Positions 1 to 57,407 of a stretch of DNA of 64,000 nt are shown piece after piece; the first letter of the stretch is position 1; every line of letters begins with the position of its first letter. The DNA is from an uncultured virus (IMG/VR IMGVR_UViG_3300009151_000055) (Duplodnaviria; Heunggongvirae; Uroviricota; Caudoviricetes): positions 1 to 64,000 of IMG/VR virus record IMGVR_UViG_3300009151_000055. One strand, given 5' to 3'. The translations under genes and the position numbers were made by a program. Below the pieces are notes generated by a model, which did no database searches, had not been told where the DNA came from, and was given only the letters and a program-made list of their open reading frames with translations.

Positions 1-252
1 TTCTTTTTAGGAATATGGAACAAGAGGAAAAAGCATGAATGTGAAAACTGTGGAGAGTGGCTTGGAAAAGAGCCACTCTCTTACATGTTTGATCATCTTC
101 TAGAGAAGAAGTCTCATCCAGAGTTAAGATTGGAAGAAGAAAACATAATGTTAGTGTGTTTGAAATGTCATGATGAAAAAACTAGAGGATTCGCTAGTGA
201 TTATGTTAAAAACAGAATAAATATTGTAAAACAGAAATATGAGGGAACCTAA
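1..252 (+). CDS. HNH/NinG-like zinc-binding endonuclease, 5'-truncated (absent from ORF track)
   Basis: Frame 1 is open from base 1 to TAA at 250-252: ...ECENCGEWLG...FDHLLEK...EENIMLVCLKCHDEKT..., a CxxC...H...N...CxxCH pattern. Confidence 0.7.
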   Translation, partial: FFLGIWNKRKKHECENCGEWLGKEPLSYMFDHLLEKKSHPELRLEEENIMLVCLKCHDEKTRGFASDYVKNRINIVKQKYEGT

Positions 253-889
253 CAGAGAACGAAAGAATGAAATTAAGTACAAAGTTACATTAAACGAAGA
301 ACAGAGAGAAGCTAAAAATTTAATCATTGACAATCAAATTGTTGTTATTACAGGAAGAGCTGGCTGTGGTAAATCATTAGTAGGAATTCAAGCAGCTTTA
401 GATTTTCTTAATAAAAAAATGTGTGATAGAATATTAATTACACGAACTCTTGTTGAGGTGGGAGATAGTATGGGTTTTCTTCCTGGAAACATTGATGATA
501 AAATGAATCCTTATTTAGAAGCTGCTTTGGAAAATTTTGAAAAATGTATGGATAAACAAAAAATCCAAGACTATATAGTAGCAGGAAAAATAAAAGGAGG
601 ACCAATTAATTTTATTAGAGGGAAAACTATTGATGATGTATTAATTTTAGAAGAAGCTCAGAATGTAACCAGACACAGAATGGAAGCACTTTTAACTAGA
701 TTGGGTAAAGTTGGAAAAATCATTATTAATGGAGATCTTTCTCAACGAGACATTAAAGATGGTTATACTGGTTTAGATTTTGTTATAGAATTATCTAAAC
801 ATATTCCTGAAATTAAATGGATTAAATTAAAAGAAAATCATCGTTCTGATCTTGTAGGAAAAATATTAGATCACATTTATGGAAAATAA
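239..889 (+). CDS. phoH: PhoH-like ATPase
   Basis: Walker A GRAGCGKS, MGFLPG, FIRGKT, ILEEAQN, LTRLG, GDLSQRD and NHRS motifs of the PhoH family. Confidence 0.92.
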   Translation: MREPNRERKNEIKYKVTLNEEQREAKNLIIDNQIVVITGRAGCGKSLVGIQAALDFLNKKMCDRILITRTLVEVGDSMGFLPGNIDDKMNPYLEAALENFEKCMDKQKIQDYIVAGKIKGGPINFIRGKTIDDVLILEEAQNVTRHRMEALLTRLGKVGKIIINGDLSQRDIKDGYTGLDFVIELSKHIPEIKWIKLKENHRSDLVGKILDHIYGK

Positions 890-4170: not shown

Positions 4171-4454
4171 AATTGTTGGTTGATTTTGAAAAAAATTGTA
4201 CTTGATGTTTTTATACTCTTAGAGAATATCAGCTCTATTCCTAATAGATTGTGGAATTTTAATAATTCCTCTATTAGCATGTTATTGTATTTTGGAAGAG
4301 AAGGAGCTAGTCTAAAGTTGTAAGAATCTGTGTTCTTAATAATTTCTAATGTAGACAATTCGTCTACAGAATCTATCACTGCCTCAAGATAGGCAAAATA
4401 AATCATTTCATTATCTTGTAATATCTTTGGGAAGTATTTAGTGCTTATTTGCAT
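4167..4454 (-). CDS. hypothetical protein
   Basis: 95-aa ORF translationally coupled on both sides. Confidence 0.7.
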   Translation of the reverse strand: MQISTKYFPKILQDNEMIYFAYLEAVIDSVDELSTLEIIKNTDSYNFRLAPSLPKYNNMLIEELLKFHNLLGIELIFSKSIKTSSTIFFKINQQL

Positions 4455-4873
4455 TAAGATAGAGTTAATCTGTATTTGGTTTGAGCAGCAAGTCCAGAAA
4501 GAGATTGTGCTACATTTTCTATGTCAGGCATGTTATTTGCAGAGCCAAAGAGTTCTAGTTGTTTTGCAAATGATATTAAATCATTTACCACTTGTTCAGA
4601 TATTCCTATAGAATAGTCTTTGATGGGTTCTACAGGCATAGCTTTTGTTCTTATTCCTGAATAGCCCATTATCTTTTCTACAATTTCATCTTTGAAATCA
4701 AAAACACCATCATAGAGTTTTCCTAATGCGTCGTGTTCTGCAAATCCTTTTGTCTGCCAATGCAATTCATGCACTTGAAGCTCAAAGTAATTAAGCTTTG
4801 CTTTTATCTTATCTAGAGAAAGGGAATTGTTCATTCCCTCTCCTAGCATTTCTTTTGGAAATATTGATTTCAT
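4454..4873 (-). CDS. ferritin/Dps-like protein (DUF5856-type)
   Basis: HELHWQTKGFAEHDALGKLYD...DEIVEKIMG ferroxidase-like pattern. Confidence 0.75.
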   Translation of the reverse strand: MKSIFPKEMLGEGMNNSLSLDKIKAKLNYFELQVHELHWQTKGFAEHDALGKLYDGVFDFKDEIVEKIMGYSGIRTKAMPVEPIKDYSIGISEQVVNDLISFAKQLELFGSANNMPDIENVAQSLSGLAAQTKYRLTLS

Positions 4874-4883
4874 TTTTTATTTT

Positions 4884-5285
4884 TTACGCTATAGAGAACG
4901 ATAAAGTGGCTCCATAACACAATGTACTTGCTACAGATGTGTTCACTACAAAATTTACAGTTGCTCCATCAGGAGATGTAAATACACCTAAATATCCTGC
5001 AGAAGTGTTTAATGCTGCTAACAATGTCACCATGTTAGTGGATGCTGTATTTGTATTTACAACAATAGATTTTCCACTAGAGCACGTTAATGTCAAATCA
5101 ACATTTGCAATAGTTAAGCTACCAGGAGTGTAATTAATACCTATGCCATCACAACAATAGTTTGAAGACACTTGCTTCCAATTGCCCACTTTAGGCTTGT
5201 TTTTTCTAAGAATGAGAGAACCAGGAACGATTCTTTCTGATCCATCATATCTAACGAACGCTTTTAATTTGTTGTCTAATTGCAT
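4884..5285 (-). CDS. putative virion decoration/fibre-associated protein
   Basis: Likely start MQLDNKLKAFVRYDGSERIVPGSLILRKNKPKVGNW...YCC, followed by a Thr/Ser/Val beta-rich domain. Confidence 0.6.
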   Translation of the reverse strand: MQLDNKLKAFVRYDGSERIVPGSLILRKNKPKVGNWKQVSSNYCCDGIGINYTPGSLTIANVDLTLTCSSGKSIVVNTNTASTNMVTLLAALNTSAGYLGVFTSPDGATVNFVVNTSVASTLCYGATLSFSIA

Positions 5286-5290
5286 TTTAT

Positions 5291-6301
5291 TTATTTTAAA
5301 TTGTATTTGTTTTTCAATTCTACCAACTGACTGACATAATAATGTGTACAATACTTCTTACTCTCTTCGTTGTTATACACCTCATCTAAATCACTGAATG
5401 GAGAGACACCATGTATATATTTTCCTTTATAGAATGCTTTGTAATGTCCCATATCTGTATTGGATATTCCTGCATTATGAAACAGTCCTATAGAATCCAT
5501 TCTTGATATATGGTCAGTTGCCCATGCAAAGTCCATTTCTTTCACCACTTGTGTTGTGTATCCTTTATACCAAAGGTTCCACAAGACAGCCCACATGTCA
5601 GCACACCAACTTTGAAATCCTTTGTTCTCACTCTCAAAGAATTGTCCGTTAATGTTTAACAAAAATCTTCTAATAAGAATACAATCACTAAACACTTTCT
5701 GCCAAAACTTATAATCTATGTTCTTCAGAAGATATTGTGCTCCTCCTGAATGTAAATTATTTGCTTCAGCTATTTGTCTATTTATTCCTATAAGAGATGT
5801 GAGTTCGTTTAATACGTCTCTTGTGTTGTATAGTTCTTGTTTGTCCTGTAGAACATCATTTTTCTTGCTATCAAAATATGAAGCGTTTATGTAAGAGTTT
5901 GTGTCAGACAGATAACACACATCATCATTTATGTAAGCATCGATGTTGAAATTCTCTGTAAACACAATGTCACAATCACAATAGAAAATGGCTTTGTCTT
6001 TCATCTCTGGATGATCTTTGAACCATCTCATTAATGTGTAAGGACGCAACACTGGAATATAAATTGGAATAAAGTCTGATACACCATCTTCATCTCTATA
6101 GAAACCAAATGTTGCTTCTGGATAGAGTTCTTTTAATTCGTCCCATTCTGTATTGTATTGCCTTTCTGCGGGAGTGTAAACTAATACAATAGCTTGTTCA
6201 CTCTTTCCTATTTTCTTAAGACTCTCTAGCCATAGATGTGTTTGCCATTTATAATACGAATCATCTGGCTGCGAGCACAAAAACTTTAATTCTTTAATCA
6301 T
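5291..6301 (-). CDS. putative peptidyl Ser/Thr/Hyp O-glycosyltransferase (GT95/GT96-like, GT-A fold)
   Basis: Ordered motifs YYKWQ, Y-x-P-x-LRPY...W...HP, FYCDCDIVF (DxD), GGAQY and WCADMW parallel the WQ / N[KR]P / DxD / WxxEMY motifs of plant HPAT and SERGT1 enzymes. Confidence 0.6.
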   Translation of the reverse strand: MIKELKFLCSQPDDSYYKWQTHLWLESLKKIGKSEQAIVLVYTPAERQYNTEWDELKELYPEATFGFYRDEDGVSDFIPIYIPVLRPYTLMRWFKDHPEMKDKAIFYCDCDIVFTENFNIDAYINDDVCYLSDTNSYINASYFDSKKNDVLQDKQELYNTRDVLNELTSLIGINRQIAEANNLHSGGAQYLLKNIDYKFWQKVFSDCILIRRFLLNINGQFFESENKGFQSWCADMWAVLWNLWYKGYTTQVVKEMDFAWATDHISRMDSIGLFHNAGISNTDMGHYKAFYKGKYIHGVSPFSDLDEVYNNEESKKYCTHYYVSQLVELKNKYNLK

Positions 6302-6888
6302 ACTGTTGTTGGTTTAAATCTATCATCTCTTTTTATAATTGCTGTTGTATTAGATTTCCAAGTATTTCCATAAATAATTGCTCTAATTGAACTTACACTT
6401 ATTTTTGTTATATTAGAAACTTCAGCAATAGTTTTACCAGAGTTATATAACTCTTTTAATAAAGTTACATCTTTATCTTTAATTTTTGCTTTAACATTGT
6501 TCTCACCAGCTCTACTAGGTTGTAATCCTAATTTATAAGCATGTAGTTGATTTTCTGAATTATCAACCCATTGAAGATTGTCTACTCTATTGTTTAACTT
6601 ATTACCATCTATATGATTGACTTGTGGTTTGTTTTCATTTGGTAAAAAAGCTTTAGCAATCAATCTATGTATTATTTTAAAAATGTGCTTAGAATTTTTA
6701 TACAATCTTACTTCTAAATATCCTTTTTTATTAATATAAGATTTTAGTAATTTACTCTTAATCACTCCACGTCTATTTCCAGATATTCTGTCAATACTTC
6801 TAACATTCCCAAGTGTACTAACTTCATAAGAAGATTCATACCCTGGACAACGCTTCCATGTTTCGCAAATAAATACTAACTCTTTCAT
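6298..6888 (-). CDS. NUMOD4-HNH homing endonuclease
   Basis: ETWKRCPGYESSYEVSTLGNVRS (NUMOD4); IHRLIAKAF...VNHIDGNKLNNRVDNLQW (HNH); C-terminal HTH. Confidence 0.9.
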   Translation of the reverse strand: MKELVFICETWKRCPGYESSYEVSTLGNVRSIDRISGNRRGVIKSKLLKSYINKKGYLEVRLYKNSKHIFKIIHRLIAKAFLPNENKPQVNHIDGNKLNNRVDNLQWVDNSENQLHAYKLGLQPSRAGENNVKAKIKDKDVTLLKELYNSGKTIAEVSNITKISVSSIRAIIYGNTWKSNTTAIIKRDDRFKPTTV

Positions 6889-6911
6889 ATGTAGTTGTTG
6901 GTTTATGTTTG

Positions 6912-7046
6912 TTAAGGTGCTGTCGTAGTGGTGGTGGATGTAGTTGTTGAAGGACTTCCACTCACTTGTATTAATCTTTCCAGCTTGTTGCTAATTTCGT
7001 AGAGAAGATTTGCTTCTTGACTCCAGCCTATTTGTTTACTGATCAT
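6912..7046 (-). CDS. 44-aa Thr-tailed mini-protein sharing its N-terminus with tail fibre 9483..10877 (not in ORF track)
   Basis: MISKQIGWSQEANLLYEISNKLERLIQVSGSPSTTTSTTTTTAP*. Confidence 0.75.
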   Translation of the reverse strand: MISKQIGWSQEANLLYEISNKLERLIQVSGSPSTTTSTTTTTAP

Positions 7047-37729: not shown

Positions 37730-40700
37730 TTAATTGTATTTTTCTAACCAACCACCGTTCTTTTTAACAGGGTATTCTACCACTTTCTTTCCTTTGAATT
37801 TGTAGTGTTCTCCTGGATGCATATATTGTACATCACCCTCATCAGAGATTCCTATTAATGGTTGATGAACACCTTGCATTGTTATATTGTTGCTTCCTAT
37901 TTCTACAGGCTTTCCCCAATTCTTAGGATTCCAATATCCGTTGTCATCTTTGGTTATTTTTCCACCTTGTTTTTTTTGTTGCAATGCTGCTGCTCCTCCT
38001 ATTGCTCCTGTAATAGTATATGGATTTAATATAGATGTTCTAAATCTATAAGGTTTATAAACTTCATCTATAGGATAAGTTTCTTCAACTTTTCTTATCA
38101 ATCCTTTAGGAAGAATAATTTCTTTTTCTCCACTATATTGAGGATACGAACTTGCTTCTGGAATAGCTATAGATTGTATATTACCTCCTGGAACATCAAT
38201 TAATTCAGATGAAATATTTTCTCCAAAACTACTATAGTCTTTTGGTATAGAGGTTGATAAAAAAGAATCGTCTTTAAAAATATCTCCTGTTGATAAATTT
38301 GATCTTGATTTTTTTATTCCTAAAGGTAAATGTGTTTCTGGGTGTAATAACTCTACATCATAATTGCGTACACCTCTCATAACTTGAAACGGTTTATCAG
38401 CTTTATTTTTTAAAATTGATTCCAATAACTTATTGCCTTGATCTTTATAAAAATTTCCTGTAGTTCCTAAAGAAGTTCTATTTTCTCTAAGTGCTCCATT
38501 TATTGAATTATCATAACCATGTGTATAAGCATCAATGATATTCCAATCTTCACTTGATAATTTTGATACATCATATCCTGAATTGTTTATAAGATTTAAA
38601 ATGTCTTCACCTTTTGTGGATGGGAATTCATTTAATTTATCATAGGGTTGAAATTCTATTTGTTGTCCTTTAGCATTTCTTATAATAGGATTATTAAATT
38701 GAGGAATTTTATCATGTATTAAATTTCTAATAAATAATCCATGCTCTTTTCCTCCACTGCCTGTAACTGTTGAATTTTTAAAATGATTTATGGATTGTTT
38801 GTGTAACTCTTTAAGTTCTTCTGGAGATATATAATTTGATAGTCCTTTATAAATTTCTTCTCTCCATTTACCATATTGATCATCCGTTAATGGTTCACTG
38901 TAATTAATGGGTTTTTTATTTGGAGTAACAATTTGGCTTTTATTTTTTATTATATCTTGAACTTCATCAAAATTTATTGAATTATACGTTTCTTCAGGTA
39001 GATTTAAATCAAATATTAATTTTTCTTCTTCATCTAAGTGATGAGTATAATCTTTTATAAGTTTGTCTGTTATATCAGACTGTTGTAAACCTCCAGAAGG
39101 TGAATTAACATCATAATAAAATTCTTTAGGTAATGAAGGTAATTCATTTGATAAATTTTTTGCTGCTTTGTTTTCTAAATATTCTTTACCTGCGTTCTTT
39201 AAACCTTTTGCTAATGCTTTTACACCCTTACCAACTAATGGAGCAGCAGCACTTGCTATCATTTCTGCATCTATCATTGGTTCAACAATGTTTTCGTATG
39301 CTCTGTTGAGCATTCTGTCTTGTTGAGGATTGAATCTATCTTCTATAGAGCCAGTTGTTGGGTTATATCTTTTGCCACTTTGTTGGGCGTATTGTTCATT
39401 TAGCTGCCTTCTTCTTTCATCATTAATTGGAGATGAAGCTTTTTGTAATGATGGTTGTTGAGCTCTTAGTTTTGCATCTAATGCTTTTGCCTCATCAGCT
39501 TTTCTTTCAGCAAGAGTTCTCATGTCTCTTGGTTGTTTTTTCACTGCTGTACCATCTTGACTAATAGTTTTAGCATCCCAATCAAGTCCATTCTGATAGA
39601 AGGACATTTCTTTTCCATTCTGTGCAGAAGCTTTTGTCTTCTTAGCGTAAGGACCATTTGAGGGAATGTTTTTTGTACGTGCGTATGTGAATCCTACAGA
39701 ACCAGGGAGAGAGCCTCCTAATTGAAACTGTCCTCCCCATGCAGGGCTGTAGTTTCTACCTGTTATGTCATATCCTGTTCCTACGTAATCTGGACCTGTA
39801 GTTGTAGAAGCATCATTATAATTAGGTTGTATAGGACCACCATCATTAAACTTAGTTAAAGCATCATAATAGTTTTTAATCTTATTTACATATTGACTTT
39901 TTCCTTCAGCATCACCTGTCTTTAGTGAGTTTGGAGATTGCCACATGTAAGCAATTTTCTCAACATCTGTTAATTCAGGATTGTTACCTTTAGTTTTTAA
40001 TTTTAATGATAATTCACCATCTTTATTAACAAATGAATATCTATCTGACTTAGTTAATTGTTTAAGATAGTTATTAACTTTTGTTGTATCTCCATCTTCA
40101 TATCCTGGAATTTGAGAATAAGGAATACGTTTATTTAACTCATCAATAAATAAACCATCTTTATTTAGTTTACTATTGGTAGATCTAAAGTTTTCAATAA
40201 ATCCTGGTTGATTGATTGTTTTAACTCCTGGTTTTAATCCTTTATCATATAAACGTTTTGCATCTTTATCTGCTACACTAAGATACATCATTGTAGCAAT
40301 TGCTGAATTATATGGATCTTGTATATTACGTAAATTTCCATTGCCCTTATATTTTTTACTAAGTGCAGTTTTTAATCTTTTATCTTTTGTAACATTGTTA
40401 AAATTTAATTGAGTCATGCCTTGAGTGCTACCAAAATTATCAGCAAAACCCAATGCTCCTCCACCTTCAGATTCAGCCATTGCTATAGCTAGTGCTGAAT
40501 TTGCAAGTCTATTATAATCAGAATCACTTAAACCTAAATTACTAACAAGTTCACCTTTATTATCACTTAATGCTTGTGCAAACTTTGATAATTTTTCTTT
40601 ATCAGCCTTTGGGGAACGGGATTTACCATCTTCATTTATTTGTGCCCAAGATTGTTTAGTTGCAGCTAATAGTTTATCTATGTTAGCTGAAAAAGGAGTT

Positions 40701-41533
40701 AATTCAGTTTTTAATATTCCTTTTTTATTAAGATTTTCTTTTGTATTAGTAGCTACACTTTTAGGAACACTTATGTTTTCTAACTCATACCCTAGTTTAT
40801 CTTTTAACTCTTTGCTTATTTCATCAAGAGTTCCGTATTTACGTGTATAAGAATCATAAAATATAGGTTTGCCACTATCATCATATCCAACTGCTTCTGT
40901 ACTATGATGAGAAGGTTGAAGACCGTACTGGGTATTCATACCTTGACTACGTTGTTTGTTACTGGTTTCTCTTGTACCAGCAGGTCCCCATCCAGCAATT
41001 GCTCCTGTTGGAATATCTGTTGGTATTGCCTGTTTTGCTGCACCACTATATATATTCTTACCTCCTGATTTTACAATTGCACCATGTATATCCCAACTAT
41101 CTGCAGATCCAGATCTTACATCTCCTTTCAAATAAGGATTATCTTTTACTAGTTTTTCACTAGGAGTACCTGGTGTACTTATTAAATTTAAATCTTTTGT
41201 CCAAATATCATTACTACCAGGAATACCTTTTATTCTTCCAGCAGTCATGTCGTATGCCTTGCGTGAACTTTCTAAACAGTTACCTGTGGGACAATATCCA
41301 TTATTAACATCATTTAAAAACTGTAACTCCGCAGGAGTGTAGGTTAAATCTGTAAGATTAATTAATGGTTTTGGTTTCTTTTCAATTTCATCGCCTTCTG
41401 CAGCATACCTATCAAGCCACCCACCATTCTTCATAATGTTCTTTCCACATATATGACATATTGTTGCATCCTTTTTACTGGAACTTGATTTGTCCCATGA
41501 ATGTCCACATGTGCATGTAATTTTATTAGCCAT
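37730..41533 (-). CDS. multidomain cargo protein: CHAP/NlpC-like, lysozyme-like and VIP2-type ADP-ribosyltransferase
   Basis: C...H pair (GNCLES...SHHSTEAVG); AIAMAES...GMTQ...DPYNSAIATMMYL; YT...INGALR...VMRG...FLSTS...EKEIILPKG (R-STS-ExE). Confidence 0.75.
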   Translation of the reverse strand: MANKITCTCGHSWDKSSSSKKDATICHICGKNIMKNGGWLDRYAAEGDEIEKKPKPLINLTDLTYTPAELQFLNDVNNGYCPTGNCLESSRKAYDMTAGRIKGIPGSNDIWTKDLNLISTPGTPSEKLVKDNPYLKGDVRSGSADSWDIHGAIVKSGGKNIYSGAAKQAIPTDIPTGAIAGWGPAGTRETSNKQRSQGMNTQYGLQPSHHSTEAVGYDDSGKPIFYDSYTRKYGTLDEISKELKDKLGYELENISVPKSVATNTKENLNKKGILKTELTPFSANIDKLLAATKQSWAQINEDGKSRSPKADKEKLSKFAQALSDNKGELVSNLGLSDSDYNRLANSALAIAMAESEGGGALGFADNFGSTQGMTQLNFNNVTKDKRLKTALSKKYKGNGNLRNIQDPYNSAIATMMYLSVADKDAKRLYDKGLKPGVKTINQPGFIENFRSTNSKLNKDGLFIDELNKRIPYSQIPGYEDGDTTKVNNYLKQLTKSDRYSFVNKDGELSLKLKTKGNNPELTDVEKIAYMWQSPNSLKTGDAEGKSQYVNKIKNYYDALTKFNDGGPIQPNYNDASTTTGPDYVGTGYDITGRNYSPAWGGQFQLGGSLPGSVGFTYARTKNIPSNGPYAKKTKASAQNGKEMSFYQNGLDWDAKTISQDGTAVKKQPRDMRTLAERKADEAKALDAKLRAQQPSLQKASSPINDERRRQLNEQYAQQSGKRYNPTTGSIEDRFNPQQDRMLNRAYENIVEPMIDAEMIASAAAPLVGKGVKALAKGLKNAGKEYLENKAAKNLSNELPSLPKEFYYDVNSPSGGLQQSDITDKLIKDYTHHLDEEEKLIFDLNLPEETYNSINFDEVQDIIKNKSQIVTPNKKPINYSEPLTDDQYGKWREEIYKGLSNYISPEELKELHKQSINHFKNSTVTGSGGKEHGLFIRNLIHDKIPQFNNPIIRNAKGQQIEFQPYDKLNEFPSTKGEDILNLINNSGYDVSKLSSEDWNIIDAYTHGYDNSINGALRENRTSLGTTGNFYKDQGNKLLESILKNKADKPFQVMRGVRNYDVELLHPETHLPLGIKKSRSNLSTGDIFKDDSFLSTSIPKDYSSFGENISSELIDVPGGNIQSIAIPEASSYPQYSGEKEIILPKGLIRKVEETYPIDEVYKPYRFRTSILNPYTITGAIGGAAALQQKKQGGKITKDDNGYWNPKNWGKPVEIGSNNITMQGVHQPLIGISDEGDVQYMHPGEHYKFKGKKVVEYPVKKNGGWLEKYN

Positions 41534-42710: not shown

Positions 42711-42983
42711 TCATAAGTTTGTTTCTAATGTTTTTAACCAGTTTATTTTGTCCATTTCAACTAAAATTTCCTCCCAAGTGTAAACTTTATTATCAATTAA
42801 ATAAGGTGCGATTGAATTTGGAATGGTGTTATTTTCATTTTTAAACCAATTCACAACAAAATAATTTCCATCATTTGATATTCTTAAATTTTCACTATCA
42901 TTTTGAATCAATTCATTATAATCAATTGAATTTTTATAATCAATTGATAAAATTCCATAATTTACAATGTTATTAATATCCAT
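42711..42983 (-). CDS. hypothetical protein, LamG-fibre associated
   Basis: IDY..L.Q.....LR.S.DG.YFVV.W...YTWEEIL motif; overlaps the LamG gene end. Confidence 0.6.
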   Translation of the reverse strand: MDINNIVNYGILSIDYKNSIDYNELIQNDSENLRISNDGNYFVVNWFKNENNTIPNSIAPYLIDNKVYTWEEILVEMDKINWLKTLETNL

Positions 42984-44025
42984 ACTTTGCTTTATTAAAG
43001 TTAAAATTTTGTGTAATTTCAGAAGATGTAAGTAATCTGTTATACATAATTATTTGTCCAAATTTACAGCCTGCTGTTCCATCTTGATTAATTCTTAGGA
43101 AATTAGGTTGAGTGTTATTAAATGCTCCTTGAGTTGCTGTAACTGGTGTTCCTTCATTAATTTGTACTTGCAAAGGATTTGATGTTCCATTATCTCTAAT
43201 CAAAGTTATAAAATACCAATTATTTAAGGATAAAGAACGTGTAATTCTTGTTTTGCTGTTATCTGAAGAGCCTAAAAATTCATATTGATATGGAGTTTGA
43301 TAATACGAAAAAAATGCCCAATCATAAGCAGAATATGAATATGCCGTTCCACCTGATGATATCCAAATTCCATAAAGTGAGGGCACTTTTGTAGGGTTAA
43401 ACCAAAATTGAACCGTGTTAACTGTTCCGTAAGTGTAATTAGATACAAGTCCCTTACTGCTAACTCCGTCAAAATTAACATACTTACCGCCTGTGCTTTC
43501 TGTTCCTCCAGTTGTAGATGATAGAGACATTGTAGAACTTCCTGGGGATACTAAATTTGTCCAAGTTGAACCGTTTAGTGTATAGCTTGAGGCATTATTT
43601 GCATCGAGATGATAAATTAAACCGCTTGTTACAATTTGTGCGGGAGCAACTGTAGTGGTTGTGGAAGTAGTTGATGTAGATGTACTCGTTGTTGTACTAG
43701 TGGTAGATGTTGTACTTGTAGTAGAAGTACTAGTTGTAGATGTGGTTGTTGATGTTGTGCTAGTTGTAGTGGTAGGTCTACTAGTAGTAGTAGATGTTGT
43801 TGTAGATGTAGTGGTGGTTACAATAATTGGATTAGGATCAGGAATATTAGAACAAGTAAATCCTGCATTAAGTATTGTGTATATTTGACCAGATTCTCTC
43901 ACTGCATTATATGCAACTACGCCATCAGAATAATATCCTAAAGCAGCTGGAGTGAGCAGAGCAGGATCGTCAAAGATTCTGCAACCTATTGCTAATGTCG
44001 AACAATTTGAATAAACATTTGCCAT
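42973..44025 (-). CDS. LamG/concanavalin A-like lectin protein with a Thr/Ser-rich stalk
   Basis: ~57-residue T/S tract, then IVTSGLIYHLDA...SY...W..L...FDG...YNRLLTSSEITQNFN. Confidence 0.8.
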   Translation of the reverse strand: MANVYSNCSTLAIGCRIFDDPALLTPAALGYYSDGVVAYNAVRESGQIYTILNAGFTCSNIPDPNPIIVTTTTSTTTSTTTSRPTTTTSTTSTTTSTTSTSTTSTTSTTSTTTSTSTSTTSTTTTVAPAQIVTSGLIYHLDANNASSYTLNGSTWTNLVSPGSSTMSLSSTTGGTESTGGKYVNFDGVSSKGLVSNYTYGTVNTVQFWFNPTKVPSLYGIWISSGGTAYSYSAYDWAFFSYYQTPYQYEFLGSSDNSKTRITRSLSLNNWYFITLIRDNGTSNPLQVQINEGTPVTATQGAFNNTQPNFLRINQDGTAGCKFGQIIMYNRLLTSSEITQNFNFNKAKYGY

Positions 44026-44039
44026 TTATATCTTTAGTT

Positions 44040-47000
44040 TTATAAACATGATGAACTGTAATTATTACAAGCAGCAAAATCGCTAGTTAATGAATAGCCT
44101 AAACAAAACGCATAAGATGGAGGAATTGTTGTAGTGGTGGTAGTGGTGGTTGGAGGTCGAGTTGTGGTGGTTGATGTTGTTGTGCTTGTTGTGCTTGTGG
44201 TAGATGTAGTAGTGCTAGTTGTACTTGTTGTAGATGTTGTTGTTGATGTAGTAGTGGTAGGTGCTTGAGTGGTTGTAGTGCTGGTAGTAGATGTTGTTGT
44301 GGTTGTTGTAGGTGGCTGCGTAGTAGTGGTAGTGGTTGTAGAACTTGTTGTACTAGTGGTGGTTGTAGGAGCTGCTGTGGTAGTAGTTGACGTTGTAGAT
44401 GTAGTGGTTGTAATAGGTTTAGTAGTTGTTGTTGATGTGGTGGTAGATGTAGTGGTGGTGGTAGGAATTGTTGTTGTTGATGTAGATGATGTAGATGTTG
44501 TTGTGGTGGTGCCATTTGAATACACAGCTTGTCCTGCTAGTCTACAATCAGGGAATGCTGAATAAACTGCTGTTCCTGCAAGTGTACAATTTGGATAGGT
44601 GCTGTAGACAGCTGTTCCTATTAATTGACAATTGTAAGGAGCTTGGTACACAGATGTTCCTATTAATGTACAATTTATTGGAATTTGTGTTGTTGTTGTA
44701 GAAGATGTGGTAGACGTTCTTGTTGTTGTTGTGGATGTTGTTGACGTAGTTGTTATTTGTTGTACAGCAATAACATCTAAATCACAACTTCCATTTATTC
44801 CTGAATAGTAAAAGTTATTTTCTGCTACATACCAATTTGGAATATAGGAATGAAAAGAAATCCAACTTTTGTTATTTACACTGTAAGAAACTGTCCATGA
44901 CTTATTGCAAAAATAAGTGTTATCTGATAGATAGACAATTATTTTTATTGTTGTATTGTTTACTATCTTATTGATGTAAAACTCATCTGTAGAAGCATCG
45001 TATTTTATGTTTGGGTTGAGGGGGAGGTAGTCCAGCTTTGTTAGAATCACTCTGTCAAACTTAGAATCGTACACACCGTGTAGTCCTATTGATTTAAAGT
45101 GATTGTCTACATCTACATCAGGAAAATATCTCAATATTTCAAACGCAAGATGGTCTGTAAAAAATCTATTCATTCCAGAACCTGGAGCAGAAATATCTGT
45201 TGCTTGATTACCTTGAATCAAAAACACTTGCCCTCTTTTAGCATCTACAGTGAGTTGCCCTTGAGGAATCTTTAATAACATCTTGTGCTGACTTCCTACA
45301 TATCCAAGATCTGTTTCTGCAAAATCAACAGGAGGTGATGATTGGAATAATGTATCATTACCCATGTACGCAGCTTGAGGATTTGATGTATTGATTGTTA
45401 GAAGTGTACCATAAAGTAAAGACTTATTTTCAAATCTTGCAAGAATGGCTCTATTTTGTATACCATCTAAAGATGTAAGCTTACCATAGTTTTGAGGGAA
45501 ATCAAACTTAGAAATTGGTCTATAGATGAGCCAGCTGTTTATTCTATTGTCAGAAAAGCTTTGTTGTCTATCAGAATAAATTGTTCTAAATGGAAAATGT
45601 GTGTAACACAATTGCTCTGTCCAATTTATTGGAAGATGAGAGAAATAGTTTTCTTTATTCTGTTTAGAGAATGTTGTATTATAGAAATATGTATTGTCTT
45701 GTTGGATGGATACAAAGGATTCTTGTAACCAGTTATCAGGAATTCCTGTAGAAACGTGAGGATAGAAGTCTCCTTCTCTGTCATTGAACGCTTGTCTAAG
45801 GTCAACATTAATAGAAGATTCGCAATAGAATGACGGAATACCATAAGCAAACAAATACATCTTTCCATCATAGAAAGTTCTGTCAATGTTTACTATTGGT
45901 GGATTGGCAGTGCTATCAGGAGCAGGAAGTTGATTGTTAGGACAATCAAAATAATGTGCTTTTGTAGAAATAATATTCTTCATGTTGGTGGCAAAATCGT
46001 CACCAAGTCCTTGATAGTCATTTAATATACTTCTTGAAGAATACCAATATTGAGGATAGGCAACGTTTCCTATTTCATCATAGAATATGTCACTGTCATC
46101 TGGAGCATTCACTCTATTGTCAATAAAGAATGGAAGCTTTGTTTTAAATGCAAATCTGTTAATGAATGTATCTCCTCCAAATATTGTTGCTGTAGAAGAT
46201 TGTCCATTTATAATGTTATCAATTTCAATATTTCTTTGAAATCCTGTATCAATTGTATCGTATGAATAAATCTGTCCCCATTGATTAATAAATTGATTTT
46301 TCAATGAGGCATAATAACACACTGTGTCTATTGAGAATTGTTCATTAGGTTTTGAGCAATTTCCTTGTTGAGAAATTGTACTTCTTGAATTATCTGTTAC
46401 AGCACTTATATTACCTGGAAGAAGAAGAGAGGGAGTTTTGTTTGGGAAAGGGAGAGGAACTTTTGTAGCTGCTGTTTTTAAATAAACAGAAGTTTCTCTT
46501 TGATAGTTGTTAATATTGTATGTGTCATTAACTGACTGTACACCTGGAAATATGTATTGAGCAATATCTAATTCTCTCTGTTTAACACCTACATTATTCT
46601 CTATAGAAGAAGCATAGTCATAACTTGCTATTGAGTTATACGAATAAGCAAAGTTTCTTCTCGTTATACCATTAATGTAAATAGTTAAATACGATTGATA
46701 AGCAGCAAACATTGCTGCAGGATTAAACGGAGAAGTGATGTTACCAAGATCTCTACTACTGTTAAGAGCATCTATTTGTGCTTCTCTAGAAAGGAGTTTG
46801 TAAAGAGCATGCTTCTTCACTTCTACAAAATGAGCAGAACCTTTTCCAAATATGACACTTTCAAGTTTTAATACATCTCCTAAGAAAGGTTGACCAAAAG
46901 ATGTGTCTGGAGAATTAAATACATGTCTGTATTTACTATCATCACTATCAAATGCTTTAAGAGCAGTGGGATAGCAATACATGTTTATGTTTATACTCAA

Positions 47001-49214
47001 TAGAGAAATTGTAAATCCTCCTTCTCCATAAAGAAATGTAGGCACTGTATCTAGCTTAACATTCACCACCTTTGGTGTAGCTGATGTTACATTTATAGAA
47101 GTTGCTGCTTCTGTAATAGCATCAATATAACTAAATGTTGCAGAAATAACACTTGTGAGTCTATAAGAAGAAAACTTAATTAAATCCACTGTAGCTATTC
47201 CTTCAGAAGGTCTTCTAACAGGGACAGTTAATGAACATATGTATTCTGTAGTACGTGCTGGAATTTCTTTTGTCTTCACAGTGTTTGTGAAACAATCAGT
47301 GTATTCAGCAATAATCTTTGTTGTTGTTACAATTTTGTATGTTCTACACTCAGAATTAAAAGCATTAGGATTTTTTAATATAAAAGGATCTTCTCTTAAA
47401 TCGTTGTACGGATAGTTGGGAAACAAATATGTGGTGCCTTCTCTTTCGTATTTACCAACGTTTCTTAAAATACCTTTAGCAACAATTGACTTGTTTGTAC
47501 CTCTATCACCTCTTACAATTTTAAATCCTGCAATATTGTCTATTTGCTCTTTTGTAAGAGAGGATGTATAAATTAATTGAGAAACTCTTTGTATATCAAT
47601 CTTTACACCTATTGGAAATATAGCATCTTTTGCTGTAGCAAGTTTGTATGTACCATTTCCATTTAATTCAATAAATGGTGTCTCAAATATTGGACTAATA
47701 TTTACGTCTGGAAACTTGTGGTGTCTTATGGGAGTGTTAGCAAGATCTCCCCACACTAACGTGTTGCAAGGATATAGTTCTGTAGATTCCCAATATGCAA
47801 ACTTACCATACTGATAAGGACCCTTGTAGTTCGAATCTGTTGTATATTCAGGAGAATTTGCTGTTACGCTTGCTGTATTGTATATTTTCCAATAAGGGCT
47901 ATATCCCACGTTTCCTTGCGTGTACGAGGGTTCTCCAATAAAATCTGCATTTGTATTAGGAACATCTGGTTGAGAAAACTCGTTGAAGTCTTGTATTCTT
48001 CCAGGGATGTGAAATCCATCTGTTTGTTTTCCGTTCTTCAAGAGAAACACTATTTCAAATGCGTACACTTCATCCCTTAGATAGCCTCTTAGGTTTGTTG
48101 CGTTTAGTTCATCAGCATAGTTTTCTGTAGAAGGAATTCTATATGTTTGCCATCCAAGTTCAATTTGATTAGCTATCTGTTGATAATTTATCCTGTCTAT
48201 AGAAGTGAGTTGGTCCCATACAAGTACATCTTGTACAGCTGTTAAATCTTGAGCAATATCGTAATAAGGAAACTTTTCGAATATTTCGTTTATTGTGAGA
48301 CGTATTTGTGTTACGTTCTGTCCTGTGTAAGTGATTTGATTAAAATTATCATCTATAAAATATGTACCCACTAGTTCTACAGAAGATATAGAGTTCACTG
48401 TCTTAATTACAGCAATATTATAATATTCAAAATATCCTGTAACATCAAGATTGGAAACATTTAATACAATAGACTTTCCTACATTGTAATTAAAATCAGC
48501 AGATATTAGTTGAGTTTTTGCAATAGGAGTGGGGTTGGTGACAGAATAATAAGACGTGTAAGCATCTCCTGAAGCATTACAATATTGTACAGCAAATTGA
48601 TATGTGCCTGATGTTAGGCTTCCTCCACTAATTATGTCCACCACATCTAAATAGGGAATCTCAAAATTAGGCTGCACTTTTAATTTATTACAATCAATTT
48701 CTGTTGTTGTAACATTATCACACACATTTGTGCCTGGTTGTATTTTGTAGGGAAGATTGGTTAAATCTAAATATCTTCTTGGGTTTATGCCATCCGTCCA
48801 ATAAATTTCTGTTGTACAATTAGTTATTTTATGTACAGCTTTATGGATGGGATCATCTACATTAAAGTTTAAACAGAATGCGTTTATATAGGTTCTATAG
48901 ACACAATCGTTATTGTCCATATATCCAATTTCACTTTCTCCTGTGTTTGGATTGGTTAAAAAGAATATGTGTTTATTTTGTTCATTGATGAAATGTTCAC
49001 CAATTAGTTGAAAATCTTCAGGAAACTTTAAACATAAATCATTACCTGATTCATTCTGATAATTAATAGAATTTGAATCAAAGTTCTCAAGAGCAGCATT
49101 TAGGGCATACGAGAGTTTACCTTCTACTATTTGATTAACAGAAGAGTCCATGTCCAAGCCTATTCTTGCAACGCTATATTCTGTACGTATATTGCCTTGT
49201 TCGTTGTCTGCCAT
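44040..49214 (-). CDS. tail stabilisation/muzzle protein (P22 gp10-like), N-terminal part, with Thr-rich C-terminal extension
   Basis: IYWTDG.NPRRY, YLRDEVYAFEIV, IRHHKFPD, FGGDTFI, WTVSYS...WISFHSY.P.WY; downstream of the tail tubular gene. Confidence 0.82.
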   Translation of the reverse strand: MADNEQGNIRTEYSVARIGLDMDSSVNQIVEGKLSYALNAALENFDSNSINYQNESGNDLCLKFPEDFQLIGEHFINEQNKHIFFLTNPNTGESEIGYMDNNDCVYRTYINAFCLNFNVDDPIHKAVHKITNCTTEIYWTDGINPRRYLDLTNLPYKIQPGTNVCDNVTTTEIDCNKLKVQPNFEIPYLDVVDIISGGSLTSGTYQFAVQYCNASGDAYTSYYSVTNPTPIAKTQLISADFNYNVGKSIVLNVSNLDVTGYFEYYNIAVIKTVNSISSVELVGTYFIDDNFNQITYTGQNVTQIRLTINEIFEKFPYYDIAQDLTAVQDVLVWDQLTSIDRINYQQIANQIELGWQTYRIPSTENYADELNATNLRGYLRDEVYAFEIVFLLKNGKQTDGFHIPGRIQDFNEFSQPDVPNTNADFIGEPSYTQGNVGYSPYWKIYNTASVTANSPEYTTDSNYKGPYQYGKFAYWESTELYPCNTLVWGDLANTPIRHHKFPDVNISPIFETPFIELNGNGTYKLATAKDAIFPIGVKIDIQRVSQLIYTSSLTKEQIDNIAGFKIVRGDRGTNKSIVAKGILRNVGKYEREGTTYLFPNYPYNDLREDPFILKNPNAFNSECRTYKIVTTTKIIAEYTDCFTNTVKTKEIPARTTEYICSLTVPVRRPSEGIATVDLIKFSSYRLTSVISATFSYIDAITEAATSINVTSATPKVVNVKLDTVPTFLYGEGGFTISLLSININMYCYPTALKAFDSDDSKYRHVFNSPDTSFGQPFLGDVLKLESVIFGKGSAHFVEVKKHALYKLLSREAQIDALNSSRDLGNITSPFNPAAMFAAYQSYLTIYINGITRRNFAYSYNSIASYDYASSIENNVGVKQRELDIAQYIFPGVQSVNDTYNINNYQRETSVYLKTAATKVPLPFPNKTPSLLLPGNISAVTDNSRSTISQQGNCSKPNEQFSIDTVCYYASLKNQFINQWGQIYSYDTIDTGFQRNIEIDNIINGQSSTATIFGGDTFINRFAFKTKLPFFIDNRVNAPDDSDIFYDEIGNVAYPQYWYSSRSILNDYQGLGDDFATNMKNIISTKAHYFDCPNNQLPAPDSTANPPIVNIDRTFYDGKMYLFAYGIPSFYCESSINVDLRQAFNDREGDFYPHVSTGIPDNWLQESFVSIQQDNTYFYNTTFSKQNKENYFSHLPINWTEQLCYTHFPFRTIYSDRQQSFSDNRINSWLIYRPISKFDFPQNYGKLTSLDGIQNRAILARFENKSLLYGTLLTINTSNPQAAYMGNDTLFQSSPPVDFAETDLGYVGSQHKMLLKIPQGQLTVDAKRGQVFLIQGNQATDISAPGSGMNRFFTDHLAFEILRYFPDVDVDNHFKSIGLHGVYDSKFDRVILTKLDYLPLNPNIKYDASTDEFYINKIVNNTTIKIIVYLSDNTYFCNKSWTVSYSVNNKSWISFHSYIPNWYVAENNFYYSGINGSCDLDVIAVQQITTTSTTSTTTTRTSTTSSTTTTQIPINCTLIGTSVYQAPYNCQLIGTAVYSTYPNCTLAGTAVYSAFPDCRLAGQAVYSNGTTTTTSTSSTSTTTIPTTTTTSTTTSTTTTKPITTTTSTTSTTTTAAPTTTTSTTSSTTTTTTTQPPTTTTTTSTTSTTTTQAPTTTTSTTTSTTSTTSTTTSTTSTTSTTTSTTTTRPPTTTTTTTTIPPSYAFCLGYSLTSDFAACNNYSSSCL
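44120..44755 (-). repeat. Thr/Ser low-complexity tracts flanking four 14-aa C-x-L-x-G-x-[AS]-V-Y repeats
   Basis: CTLIGTSVYQAPYN CQLIGTAVYSTYPN CTLAGTAVYSAFPD CRLAGQAVYSNG between poly-T/S runs. Confidence 0.85.
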
Positions 49215-53716: not shown

Positions 53717-54034
53717 TTATAAATGTGTGGTGGTTGTAGATGTAGTGGTGGAGAAAGTGGCACAACTTGTTACAAGGTTACAGAACAATGCTTTTGTTTG
53801 ATAGTTTGTAGCAATTGTTGCAAGTATTGTTGAGGCTAATGTAATTGGATCAAATTCTGCATCTATCTTCTGTAGAGCCAATGTTAGAGAGTCTTTGAAG
53901 TTTATTCCTGTGTTAGGAAGATTCGATGCTGAGTAATACACATCGTCAGATGTTGTAAGAGGTTTACAAGCATCACATTCATTAGAATAAACTACAGTTT
54001 GAGTGTAGCAAGGCATTCCTGGAACACATGACAT
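53717..54034 (-). CDS. Cys-rich structural protein with Thr tail
   Basis: V.Y...NLP.TGI...D.L..ALQKID; ends TFSTTTSTTTTHL. Confidence 0.65.
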   Translation of the reverse strand: MSCVPGMPCYTQTVVYSNECDACKPLTTSDDVYYSASNLPNTGINFKDSLTLALQKIDAEFDPITLASTILATIATNYQTKALFCNLVTSCATFSTTTSTTTTHL

Positions 54035-56207: not shown

Positions 56208-57407
56208 TTAAGGAATCAAAGTGGTTGTGGTAGTGGTGGTGGTAGAAGTACCAGTGGTAGTGGTAGAAGTAGTAGTTGATGGAGCAGGAGCACTGTTGTC
56301 AGTGTACAATCCTAAAGGACCAGCCCATGTACTAGTTACACCAGCCAAAGCAGCTTCAATTGCTGTAGCAAGAGAACCTCCAGCCAATACAGCTATAATC
56401 ACCATGCTTTCTTGAGGAATATAATCACCCCACTGATAAGCACTCTTATCGTATTCTGTAAATCTGATGTAATAAGTGTCATAAGTGGTGTTAGCAGATA
56501 CATAACTTTCAAAGTTTTGATTGTATCCAGCCATTCTGTAGAGATGCTTTAAATAACCAGCTTGGTAAGAATAATAATTCTTCTCAAGTTGAGTGATTTC
56601 GTCAGAACCTCCAGCAGGGTAAGAAGCACGTTGTAACACTGTAGCAGTGGCAACGATATTACAGTTGTCAGCTACGATGAAGTCAGCAGTGGTTGCAGGA
56701 CCTGAATATACAAATGTTCTGAAGTACATTCTGTCATACTCATAAGGGAATGCAGCAACGTCACAAGGAACACCATATTTAGTAAGAGCTTTACCAGTGA
56801 TTTGCAAATATGCTGTAGAACCAGTTCCCACTCTTGCAAATGTGAAGAATGTGCTAAAGCTAATGTTATCAGGGTTGATACCAGGAGCTTTTTGTGTAAG
56901 TTTTGCAATGAATTGATCAATTAATGCAGGAACATCAACATTGTCACAACCGCTTGCACCACAATCGCAACAAGGAGCTTGTACAGTTACAGAACGAGTG
57001 AAACCGTTGAAATACAAGGTGTCAATGTAAGAAGAGTGTGCACGTAATGTTAAAGTGACAACATCTCCACATTTTACATTAAATCCACTCACTTTAGTGA
57101 TTTGAGTTGTAGCATAAGCAATACCACTCACTTTATACCATTCAGTGACGTTTCTTCCAGTGCCTGCGTTGTTCTTACCAGAAATCTTGTCTGATCTTTT
57201 AGAACCTTGCAAGTAGGTGTTACCTCTACCTTGAGCAATATAAATGTAAGGAGCAGCAGCAAGTGTTGCAGCTGTTGCACTTGGAACATAAGCATCAGTG
57301 AAAATACCAAGTTGACCAGCAGTCAAATCTTGAGTGCTTCCTGTGGTAGGTAATGAAGTTTGGGCTGTAGGAACTACGAAGAGCGTAGTTAGAGAAAAAT
57401 CTGCCAT
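56208..57407 (-). CDS. auxiliary capsid / abundant structural protein with C-terminal Thr tail
   Basis: Third gene after the MCP, followed by a hairpin; beta-rich; ends STTTSTTTTGTSTTTTTTTTLIP. Confidence 0.65.
   Translation of the reverse strand: MADFSLTTLFVVPTAQTSLPTTGSTQDLTAGQLGIFTDAYVPSATAATLAAAPYIYIAQGRGNTYLQGSKRSDKISGKNNAGTGRNVTEWYKVSGIAYATTQITKVSGFNVKCGDVVTLTLRAHSSYIDTLYFNGFTRSVTVQAPCCDCGASGCDNVDVPALIDQFIAKLTQKAPGINPDNISFSTFFTFARVGTGSTAYLQITGKALTKYGVPCDVAAFPYEYDRMYFRTFVYSGPATTADFIVADNCNIVATATVLQRASYPAGGSDEITQLEKNYYSYQAGYLKHLYRMAGYNQNFESYVSANTTYDTYYIRFTEYDKSAYQWGDYIPQESMVIIAVLAGGSLATAIEAALAGVTSTWAGPLGLYTDNSAPAPSTTTSTTTTGTSTTTTTTTTLIP

Follow-up and report, generated by a model that had tools for sequence, protein, structure and literature searches.

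The plant and algal hydroxyproline O-arabinosyltransferases (HPAT, GT95) and the peptidyl-serine galactosyltransferase SERGT1 (GT96) attach the first sugar to hydroxyl amino acids of repetitive, disordered peptides, the cytoplasmic enzyme GlyE acts on a Ser-rich repeat protein in the glycosylation of serine-rich-repeat adhesins, and the A64R enzyme of PBCV-1 makes N-linked atypical glycans. Here we examine a candidate phage system of this kind, a predicted glycosyltransferase (GT) gene and a set of virion proteins with Thr-rich tails or linkers, in positions 1 to 64,000 of virus record IMGVR_UViG_3300009151_000055 (this 64,000-nucleotide stretch is called the window below); the full record, a crAss-like phage fragment with an estimated completeness of 67%, has 78,122 bases. 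We consider it probable, from sequence comparisons and predicted structures, that poly-Thr tags on the phage's own virion proteins are O-glycosylated by this enzyme in the cytoplasm, either ahead of particle assembly or in the course of it.

Virion glycosylation has been described in mycobacteriophages Che8, Corndog and Myrna (Freeman et al. 2023, as related in excerpts of PMC12619734 and PMC12363180). According to these excerpts the glycans are at the C-termini of capsid and tail-tube subunits, the glycosyltransferases are phage-encoded and a role as a shield has been proposed (PMC12619734, PMC12363180); the excerpts limit experimental demonstration to a few mycobacteriophages, in which glycosylation blunts antibody recognition (PMC12619734, PMC12363180). 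A literature search that had most subscription journals outside it found no description of the present enzyme family (phrog_4417) or of poly-Thr-tail glycosylation in phages. The author of the original prediction for this locus (made from the DNA sequence alone) knew of no such system in crAss-like phages.

The transferase and its predicted fold

The candidate enzyme is encoded by a single open reading frame (ORF) of the window:

5291..6301, minus strand: glycosyltransferase, 336 amino acids, phrog_4417 (identified from the ORF, its motifs, a profile match and an AlphaFold2 model)

The frame is open from an ATG start, and its product carries the four motifs that had been read from it originally (YYKWQ / LRPY..W / DCD / WCADMW), all in the predicted order: YYKWQ at residues 16-20, LRPYTLMRW at 85-93, DCD at 109-111 and WCADMW at 232-237. 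These coincide with conserved blocks in an alignment of 73 diverse family members that are 30-48% identical to the window protein. Residues Y81, D109, D111, Y137, Q230, F258, H275 and K292 are invariant in that alignment, and conservation is at least 90% at R86 and D235; the DxD motif is D109-C-D111 in the window protein and lies in the family consensus FYxDSDIxF. The protein matches no Pfam family at E <= 1 and no NCBIfam family, and sequence searches of the PDB gave no useful relative, but it is a full-length member of phrog_4417 (unknown function, E 3.4e-52; residues 5-319 align with profile positions 1-286 of 293). Homologues are abundant, with 2170 at E <= 0.001 in a set of 5.8 billion proteins; the best are mostly 61-66% identical (one is 94% identical), some are on contigs of ~100-117 kb, and the family forms 774 representative clusters at 50% identity. 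All ORFs of at least 100 amino acids from 2252 to 63929 are on the minus strand (short ORFs nested in larger ones excepted), which bears out the earlier statement that the transferase gene runs in the late structural gene direction, and since it shares the strand of the structural genes, the enzyme would most likely be made late in infection.

An AlphaFold2 model built with the 73-sequence alignment has a predicted local distance difference test score (pLDDT) of 97.7 and a predicted TM-score (pTM) of 0.94, and consists of one globular domain whose first strand begins at residue 5, with no membrane segment. Exhaustive comparison with solved folds by VIA-align gave Z values of 12.7-14.3 to ten GT-A chains, including glycogenin (14.3), the Skp1 alpha-galactosyltransferase AgtA (14.0), LgtC (13.8), the UGGT catalytic domain (13.3), Streptococcus GlyE (13.1), WbbM (12.9) and LARGE1 (12.8), and a Z of 10.9 to the capsid-glycosylating A64R of PBCV-1. 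Foldseek returned 188 matches at E <= 0.001; the matches listed are GT-A enzymes, at the top WbbM (the best, E 4.7e-6), CmsA, XXYLT1, glycogenin and alpha3GalT. As modeled, the protein is a soluble GT-A fold glycosyltransferase with a DxD motif. We take its top structural neighbors to be retaining enzymes in the CAZy classification and several of them to act on proteins or glycoproteins, and because the nearest folds are retaining GT-A enzymes, the phage enzyme would be expected to use a retaining mechanism and to form an alpha linkage. The fold comparison that the original prediction had envisaged thus gave a GT-A enzyme whose best solved neighbors do not include DNA glycosyltransferases; several of them are protein-acting, though LgtC and WbbM are also present.

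The same comparisons bear on two other possible functions. DNA glycosylation is the most familiar role of phage glycosyltransferases in the excerpt of PMC12619734, and the enzyme might on that precedent glycosylate phage DNA carrying hypermodified bases and thereby evade restriction. We regard this as extremely improbable, since no DNA glucosyltransferase is among the matches listed in the fold searches of the model, since the thymidylate-synthase/hydroxymethylase family PF00303 was found in none of four records of the window's lineage, three of them 100% complete (a control matched in 10 of 14 genomes), and since DNA modification would leave unexplained both the gene's position in structural operons and its coupling to poly-Thr tails (below). 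The DNA-modification reading was rejected on the missing PF00303 in the four records and on gene position. It is also unlikely, if somewhat less so, that the protein acts on the tails in another way, by transferring a sugar-phosphate or other group, as a non-catalytic chaperone, or as a primer or regulator of a host enzyme. Sugar-phosphate transferases of the same fold do occur in the fold list, but lower down (CpsY at Z 9.4 and GlcNAc-1-phosphotransferase at Z 9.3, thus ~9, versus Z 13-14 for the closest folds, which are nucleotide-sugar transferases), and catalysis with a metal-bound nucleotide donor is what the invariant DxD and His point to. In streptococci, host enzymes do glycosylate disordered regions rich in Ser/Thr, but the systems described in the excerpt of PMC12041528 work outside the cytoplasm, whereas virions assemble inside.

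The enzyme had also been called GT95/GT96-like, the original prediction stating that HPAT and SERGT1 show its motif order, and the two kinds of evidence on the GT95 part of that label differ. ESM Atlas neighbors, which come without alignment or E-value and serve as leads only, include two structure neighbors with the HPAT family PF23452, namely an algal cluster in which 100% of the members carry it (TM-score 0.73) and a bacterial "PqqD family" cluster with PF05402 and PF23452 (TM-score 0.70); a feature neighbor is a half-viral cluster with PF23452 in 10% of its members. The PF23452 hidden Markov model (HMM), on the other hand, has no match in the phage record at E <= 10 (or in its 14 control genomes), and it gave no match at E <= 0.01 to any of the 73 family members (the profile cut-off is 23.9 bits). 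The label has leads from structural neighbors and fails as regards the sequence profile: distant kinship to the plant HPAT/GT95 enzymes is plausible, and by its profile the PF23452 family does not include the protein. Pfam Glyco_transf_8 (GT8) does not match the transferase at E <= 1 or any of the 73 members at E <= 0.01; the transferase shares only its fold with GT8 and is not a member of that Pfam family.

The longer homologues are fused to GT2, GT6, GT7C, GT29, GT1 and GT32-type domains, to methyltransferases and, in several cases (e.g., P0229, P0396 and P0398), to radical-SAM/SPASM domains. Together with the PqqD cluster, these fusions would fit stepwise glycan building on a peptide, and the radical-SAM/SPASM and PqqD partners hint at a link to peptide-modifying pathways of the kind that produce ribosomally synthesized and post-translationally modified peptides. 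The annotation of Enterococcus phage 9183, whose homologue is described below, mentions homology to a PqqD-family protein.

Thr/Ser tracts in the window

All window ORFs were scanned, blind to the earlier list, for at least six Thr in any eight residues. Five ORFs were returned, and these are exactly the five genes originally described as encoding Thr/Ser-dominated tracts. Their products are the candidate acceptors of the window:

6912..7046, minus strand: 44-amino acid mini-protein, ends STTTSTTTTTAP; candidate acceptor
42973..44025, minus strand: 350-amino acid protein, phrog_24074 (unknown function), with a 56-residue Thr/Ser linker at residues 70-125; candidate acceptor
44040..49214, minus strand: muzzle protein, 1724 amino acids, with seven Thr/Ser tracts in residues 1488-1696; candidate tail acceptor
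53717..54034, minus strand: 105-amino acid protein, ends STTTSTTTTHL; candidate acceptor
56208..57407, minus strand: auxiliary capsid protein homologue, 399 amino acids, with C-terminal tail STTTSTTTTGTSTTTTTTTT at residues 377-396; candidate main acceptor on the capsid surface

At the DNA level, a search of the 78-kb record for the codon pattern (ACN)6 gave ten matches on the coding strand, of which one is due to poly-Gln codons of the portal gene read out of frame, and none on the opposite strand; for the reversed control pattern the two strands gave 0 and 2 matches, respectively. Codons inside the Thr runs are mixed (ACT/ACC/ACA), and the runs are therefore not simple DNA repeats. Such strand-biased runs exceed chance.

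The identities given earlier to three of these proteins fared differently. The muzzle assignment is borne out by a Pfam crAss_MUZ match (E 3.7e-30), while the name LamG for the 350-amino acid protein was not confirmed, as it matches no Pfam family at E <= 1. The 399-amino acid protein has no family match and no useful PDB sequence match; its model is of moderate quality (pLDDT 66) with residues 374-399 disordered, and its best PDB match is the crAss001 capsid entry 7qof chain a (333 residues, E 9.9e-9), with FliD matches lower, so that its fold, as modeled, supports the name auxiliary capsid protein. In the excerpt of Bayfield et al. 2023 (PMC10172136), the crAss001 auxiliary capsid protein gp36 has 333 residues, with a PH domain and a FliD-like domain, and is present in nine copies per asymmetric unit in the outer layer of the capsid wall. 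Since the 399-amino acid protein matches this outer-layer protein, its tags would project from the outside of the head. The Thr/Ser tail is present in 76 of the 77 complete homologues in relatives, and many relatives have, at the same place as 53717..54034, small ORFs of 104-136 amino acids with poly-Thr ends.

Two further genes adjoin the transferase gene or overlap its ends:

4884..5351, minus strand: 155-amino acid ORF directly downstream of the transferase gene, with no tract in the window copy
6298..6888, minus strand: HNH homing endonuclease (NUMOD4 + HNH_3, Pfam)

The HNH gene lies between the mini-protein and transferase genes and overlaps the start of the latter by four bases. It is missing at the equivalent site in all five complete or near-complete relatives, in four of which a homologue of the mini-protein (46-57 amino acids, with a poly-Thr tail) adjoins the transferase gene. 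The endonuclease gene is an insertion that stands outside the proposed glycosylation system, and the original decision to discount it, so as to make the mini-protein the upstream neighbor of the transferase, fits the gene order in these relatives. The mini-protein has a conserved N-terminal part of 30 residues followed by the Thr run, with 18 invariant positions in five sequences. By analogy with crAss001 head fibers, whose short N-terminal segments dock in hexon pockets in the excerpt of PMC10172136, one might speculate that the mini-proteins dock on the capsid in the same manner. A complex prediction of the transferase with the 44-amino acid mini-protein scored 0.02 versus a mark of 0.32 and, run as it was with no controls, speaks neither for nor against binding. 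The homologues of the 155-amino acid ORF carry poly-Thr tracts in all five relatives, so the tract-less window copy looks like a case of tag loss in the window phage; the TTG start listed for this ORF overlaps the transferase gene, and its real start may therefore be an internal ATG.

Occurrence of enzyme and tails across phages

A tblastn search of 50,697 phage records with the transferase matched 77 records, nearly all of them Firmicutes phages, plus Chryseobacterium phage MA9V-3. The positions of representative homologues, with the Thr-rich ends of nearby virion proteins, are as follows:

Lactococcus bIL285: directly after the major head gene; tail-tube protein ends ...TTTTTTTTTRHD
Enterococcus 9183: directly after the major head gene; tail-tube protein with a weaker Thr-rich end
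Lacticaseibacillus iLp84: after the head gene and an intervening 125-amino acid poly-Thr ORF; head, tail-tube and 125-amino acid proteins all with terminal Thr runs
Enterococcus phiFL1A: directly after the tail-tube gene; Thr runs at the ends of both head and tail-tube proteins
Clostridium phiCTP1: directly after the tail-tube gene; tail-tube protein ends ...TTTTTNAPITTTTTTV
Staphylococcus PT1-1: directly after the tail-tube gene; tail-tube protein with a run of 16 Thr
Lactobacillus SAC12B: after a gene for an immunoglobulin (Ig)-domain protein

In MA9V-3, the two nearest upstream tract-bearing ORFs (one adjacent to the homologue and one two genes further) carry poly-Thr/Ser linkers. In phiCTP1 the portal (437-2026 of locus L279) also ends ...TTEPITTTTTTMNNNEED and the small head protein gp11 (5215-5613) ends ...TTTTTVAPTTTTSTSQG, so that proteins other than those of the surface shell also carry the tag.

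Joint occurrence was measured in three sets of IMG/VR relatives of head or portal proteins, taken with 10-kb flanks. The enzyme was called present if the family HMM matched at E <= 1e-5 within 10 kb (the whole record was also checked for four enzyme-negative proviruses), and a tail was called present if at least six Thr occurred in eight residues within 12 residues of the C-terminus, a threshold set by this analysis. In the phiFL1A and iLp84 major capsid protein (MCP) sets, loci were kept if they had a complete MCP gene and at least 5 kb downstream of it. The counts were as follows:

bIL285 portal set: 23 loci; 14 with enzyme and tail, 9 with neither (5 of these with enough flank to judge), 0 with tail and no enzyme
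phiFL1A MCP set: 65 loci kept of 76; 12 with enzyme and tail, 53 with neither, 0 discordant
iLp84 MCP set: 62 loci kept of 74; 32 with enzyme and tail, 28 with neither, 2 with tail and no enzyme

Among the MCP relatives, then, tails are present in 12/12 enzyme-positive versus 0/53 enzyme-negative loci in the phiFL1A set and in 32/32 versus 2/30 in the iLp84 set. Close relatives differ in both features together: in the phiFL1A set the MCPs of L121-L124 and L125-L126 are 88-89% identical to the query, and only L121-L124 have enzyme and tails, and in the iLp84 set L194-L205 and L215 have neither, with MCPs 98-99% identical to those of enzyme-positive loci. On MCP-core trees the enzyme state changes three times (phiFL1A) and four times (iLp84), and the MCP tail changes equally often. 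The independent contrasts number one and two, respectively, on supported branches and three and four on all branches, and all are in the same direction. The co-occurrence of transferase and poly-Thr virion proteins, which the original prediction had named as a check, is thus near-perfect in several unrelated phage lineages.

Crassvirales and related genomes give a similar result. All four enzyme-positive records have (Thr)6 codon runs, all on the coding strand (10 in the window record, 5 and 30 in two complete relatives and 15 in MA9V-3), and whole-record searches found none in the 11 enzyme-negative crAss-like and related genomes; the in-frame status of these DNA matches was checked for the window only. 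The enzyme-negative genomes were Leptolyngbya phage Lbo-JY46 (the only relative of the window MCP in the phage collection), crAss001, DAC15, CrAssphage ZA, cr7_1, cr272_1, cr131_1, cr50_1, Cellulophaga phi14:2 and phi17:2_18, and Flavobacterium Fpv1. The window portal ties the window to 146 phage records, Crassvirales for the most part, and by an organism tally of tblastn matches the enzyme is in none of these save possibly MA9V-3. For the lineage to which the window belongs, defined by an MCP identity of 94% or more (more than 601 matches in IMG/VR), all five records of at least 90% completeness encode the enzyme, as do 12 of the full 19; those without it are fragments of 75% completeness or less. 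In lineage records the MCP is 94-95% identical to that of the window, the transferase 60-64% and the neighboring Dps-like protein 46-50%; by these sequence identities, the accessory region diverges or is swapped much more rapidly than the head genes.

Several observations weigh against the conclusion that the enzyme glycosylates these tails. Two iLp84-type proviruses, L233 and L236 (100% and 96% complete), retain a tail-tube protein with a poly-Thr tail and have no enzyme at the locus, and searches of their whole records found no member of the transferase family, although the positive control matched; their tails may be relics, may have been brought in by recombination of a tail module or may be acted on in trans. 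The enzyme-positive Enterococcus loci L109 and L110 have a Thr-rich end that falls below the tail threshold, and the Ig protein of SAC12B has TTVKP/TTVAP repeats, not pure Thr runs. Many loci are near-identical, so the counts overstate independent events, which are therefore few, and the contrasts are too few for sign-test significance within one set. The nearest folds include lipopolysaccharide (LPS)/O-antigen and other glycan enzymes (LgtC, WbbM), and the fold alone therefore leaves the acceptor unfixed. Finally, the evidence throughout consists of sequence and predicted structure.

Some of these points would suit an enzyme that acts on a glycan of the host envelope (LPS, capsule or teichoic acid), for example blocking superinfection or aiding release, with the tracts being plain flexible linkers that share ancestry with it in one cassette. 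LgtC (Z 13.8) and WbbM (Z 12.9 and the best Foldseek match) are among the nearest folds, serotype-changing phage glycosyltransferases are well known according to the excerpt of PMC12619734, and two proviruses have the tail and not the enzyme. We nonetheless judge this explanation very unlikely. The transferase is a single globular domain with no membrane segment; in six siphophage lineages its homologue is inside the head-tail operon, behind a tailed head, tail-tube or small virion protein; enzyme and tail have been gained or lost jointly on MCP backgrounds that are 88% and 98-99% identical; and the enzyme is kept in an apparently non-temperate crAss-like lineage. Glycosylation of the phage's own Thr/Ser tails, the core of the original prediction, is supported by the predicted GT-A fold and by the coupling of enzyme and tail across these genomes.

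Proposed glycan coat, remaining genes and known systems

If the virion tails are indeed the acceptors, the soluble GT-A enzyme would work in a metal-dependent manner through its DxD motif and would move sugar from a host nucleotide-sugar to hydroxyls of the disordered poly-Thr/Ser tails and linkers while these are still in the cytoplasm. The acceptors would be the C-terminal tail of the auxiliary capsid protein, the C-terminal tracts of the muzzle, the 350-amino acid linker protein and the 105- and 44-amino acid mini-proteins, and head and tail would come to bear a mucin-like glycan brush that might benefit the phage by shielding, hydration or adhesion. A broader proposal, which we offer tentatively and judge slightly less likely than not, is that phrog_4417 and a poly-Thr run form a portable two-part "glyco-tag", that the mini-proteins are dedicated capsid-docking glycan carriers, and that the family with its PqqD/radical-SAM cousins is the prokaryotic and viral kin of GT95. 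Any virion protein that gained a short Thr tail would then become a substrate, and brushes would be expected on heads, tails and fibers of Bacteroidota crAss-like podophages and of Firmicutes siphophages and myophages.

If the module works as proposed, glycosylated particles would be widespread, both in an environmental crAss-like lineage that is abundant (more than 601 MCP relatives in IMG/VR; 2170 enzyme homologues) and in dairy, gut and clinical Firmicutes phages (77 phage records). This would bear on phage stability, on adhesion to mucus or polysaccharide, on lectin-type bacterial defenses and on immune clearance in phage therapy, as well as on the reading of "fuzzy" densities in cryo-electron microscopy and of aberrant gel mobilities, and glyco-engineering could gain a short tag that is encoded genetically and is served by one soluble enzyme.

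The remaining window contains a Crassvirales-type virion module, with capsid, muzzle and ring protein families all matched in Pfam. These and two other genes are as follows:

59340-60890, minus strand: Crass_capsid (Pfam, E 1.3e-28)
44043-49214, minus strand: crAss_MUZ (Pfam, E 3.7e-30)
In the window: CrAss_Ring_1 and CrAss_Ring_2 ring proteins (Pfam, E 1.8e-11 and 1.6e-17)
62262-63929, minus strand: P22-type portal
In the window: a 4744-amino acid ORF

The portal has a Gln/Glu-rich low-complexity stretch, QQQQMQQQQQQAQQEQAQAQLAQQQQQ, in its C-terminal 150 residues, near the C-terminus. A 1267-amino acid ORF (37730-41533, minus strand), in the block after the virion genes, has an ADP-ribosyltransferase exoenzyme domain (Pfam PF03496, residues 990-1152, E 3e-13) and could represent ejected cargo with an enzymatic domain. 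A DUF5856 protein (4454-4873, minus strand; phrog annotation "starvation-inducible regulator") is encoded immediately downstream of the transferase block, and a PhoH-like ATPase is encoded on the opposite strand at the start of the window (239-886, plus strand). No tRNA genes were found in the window.

As to the known systems, clusters carrying the HPAT family PF23452 are among the Atlas structure neighbors of the phage transferase, with no sequence profile match; HPAT uses hydroxyproline as acceptor and UDP-L-arabinofuranose as donor, whereas the acceptor proposed for the phage enzyme is Thr/Ser, and HPAT is Golgi-membrane-anchored whereas the phage enzyme is viral and, as modeled, soluble. 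Glycogenin (GT8), AgtA, UGGT and GlyE have in common with it the GT-A fold and DxD site, with 211-246 residues aligned, but are only 6-10% identical to it, and the phage-borne family is separate from them, with no Pfam GT8 match. A64R of the chlorovirus PBCV-1 likewise is encoded by a virus, has a GT-A fold and glycosylates, in the cytoplasm, the major capsid protein of that virus (PDB title; Z 10.9), but its fold similarity is lower, its virus is eukaryotic and it has no poly-Thr tag. The mycobacteriophages are alike in that the candidate acceptor sites are at C-termini of virion proteins, in the window phage those of the auxiliary capsid and small proteins and in the Firmicutes phages those of the head and tail-tube proteins. 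The enzymes differ: a search of the Che8 genome with the family profile gave no match at E <= 1, and the 77 tblastn records with a homologue include no Mycobacterium phage. So do the acceptors, as poly-Thr runs are absent from the ends of both the capsid protein (...NKTGS) and the tail-tube protein (...YSDGS) of Che8, and the hosts, the phages here being Bacteroidota-type crAss-like phages and Firmicutes phages. The predicted module, which is computationally well supported, thus differs from mycobacteriophage virion glycosylation in both enzyme and acceptor.

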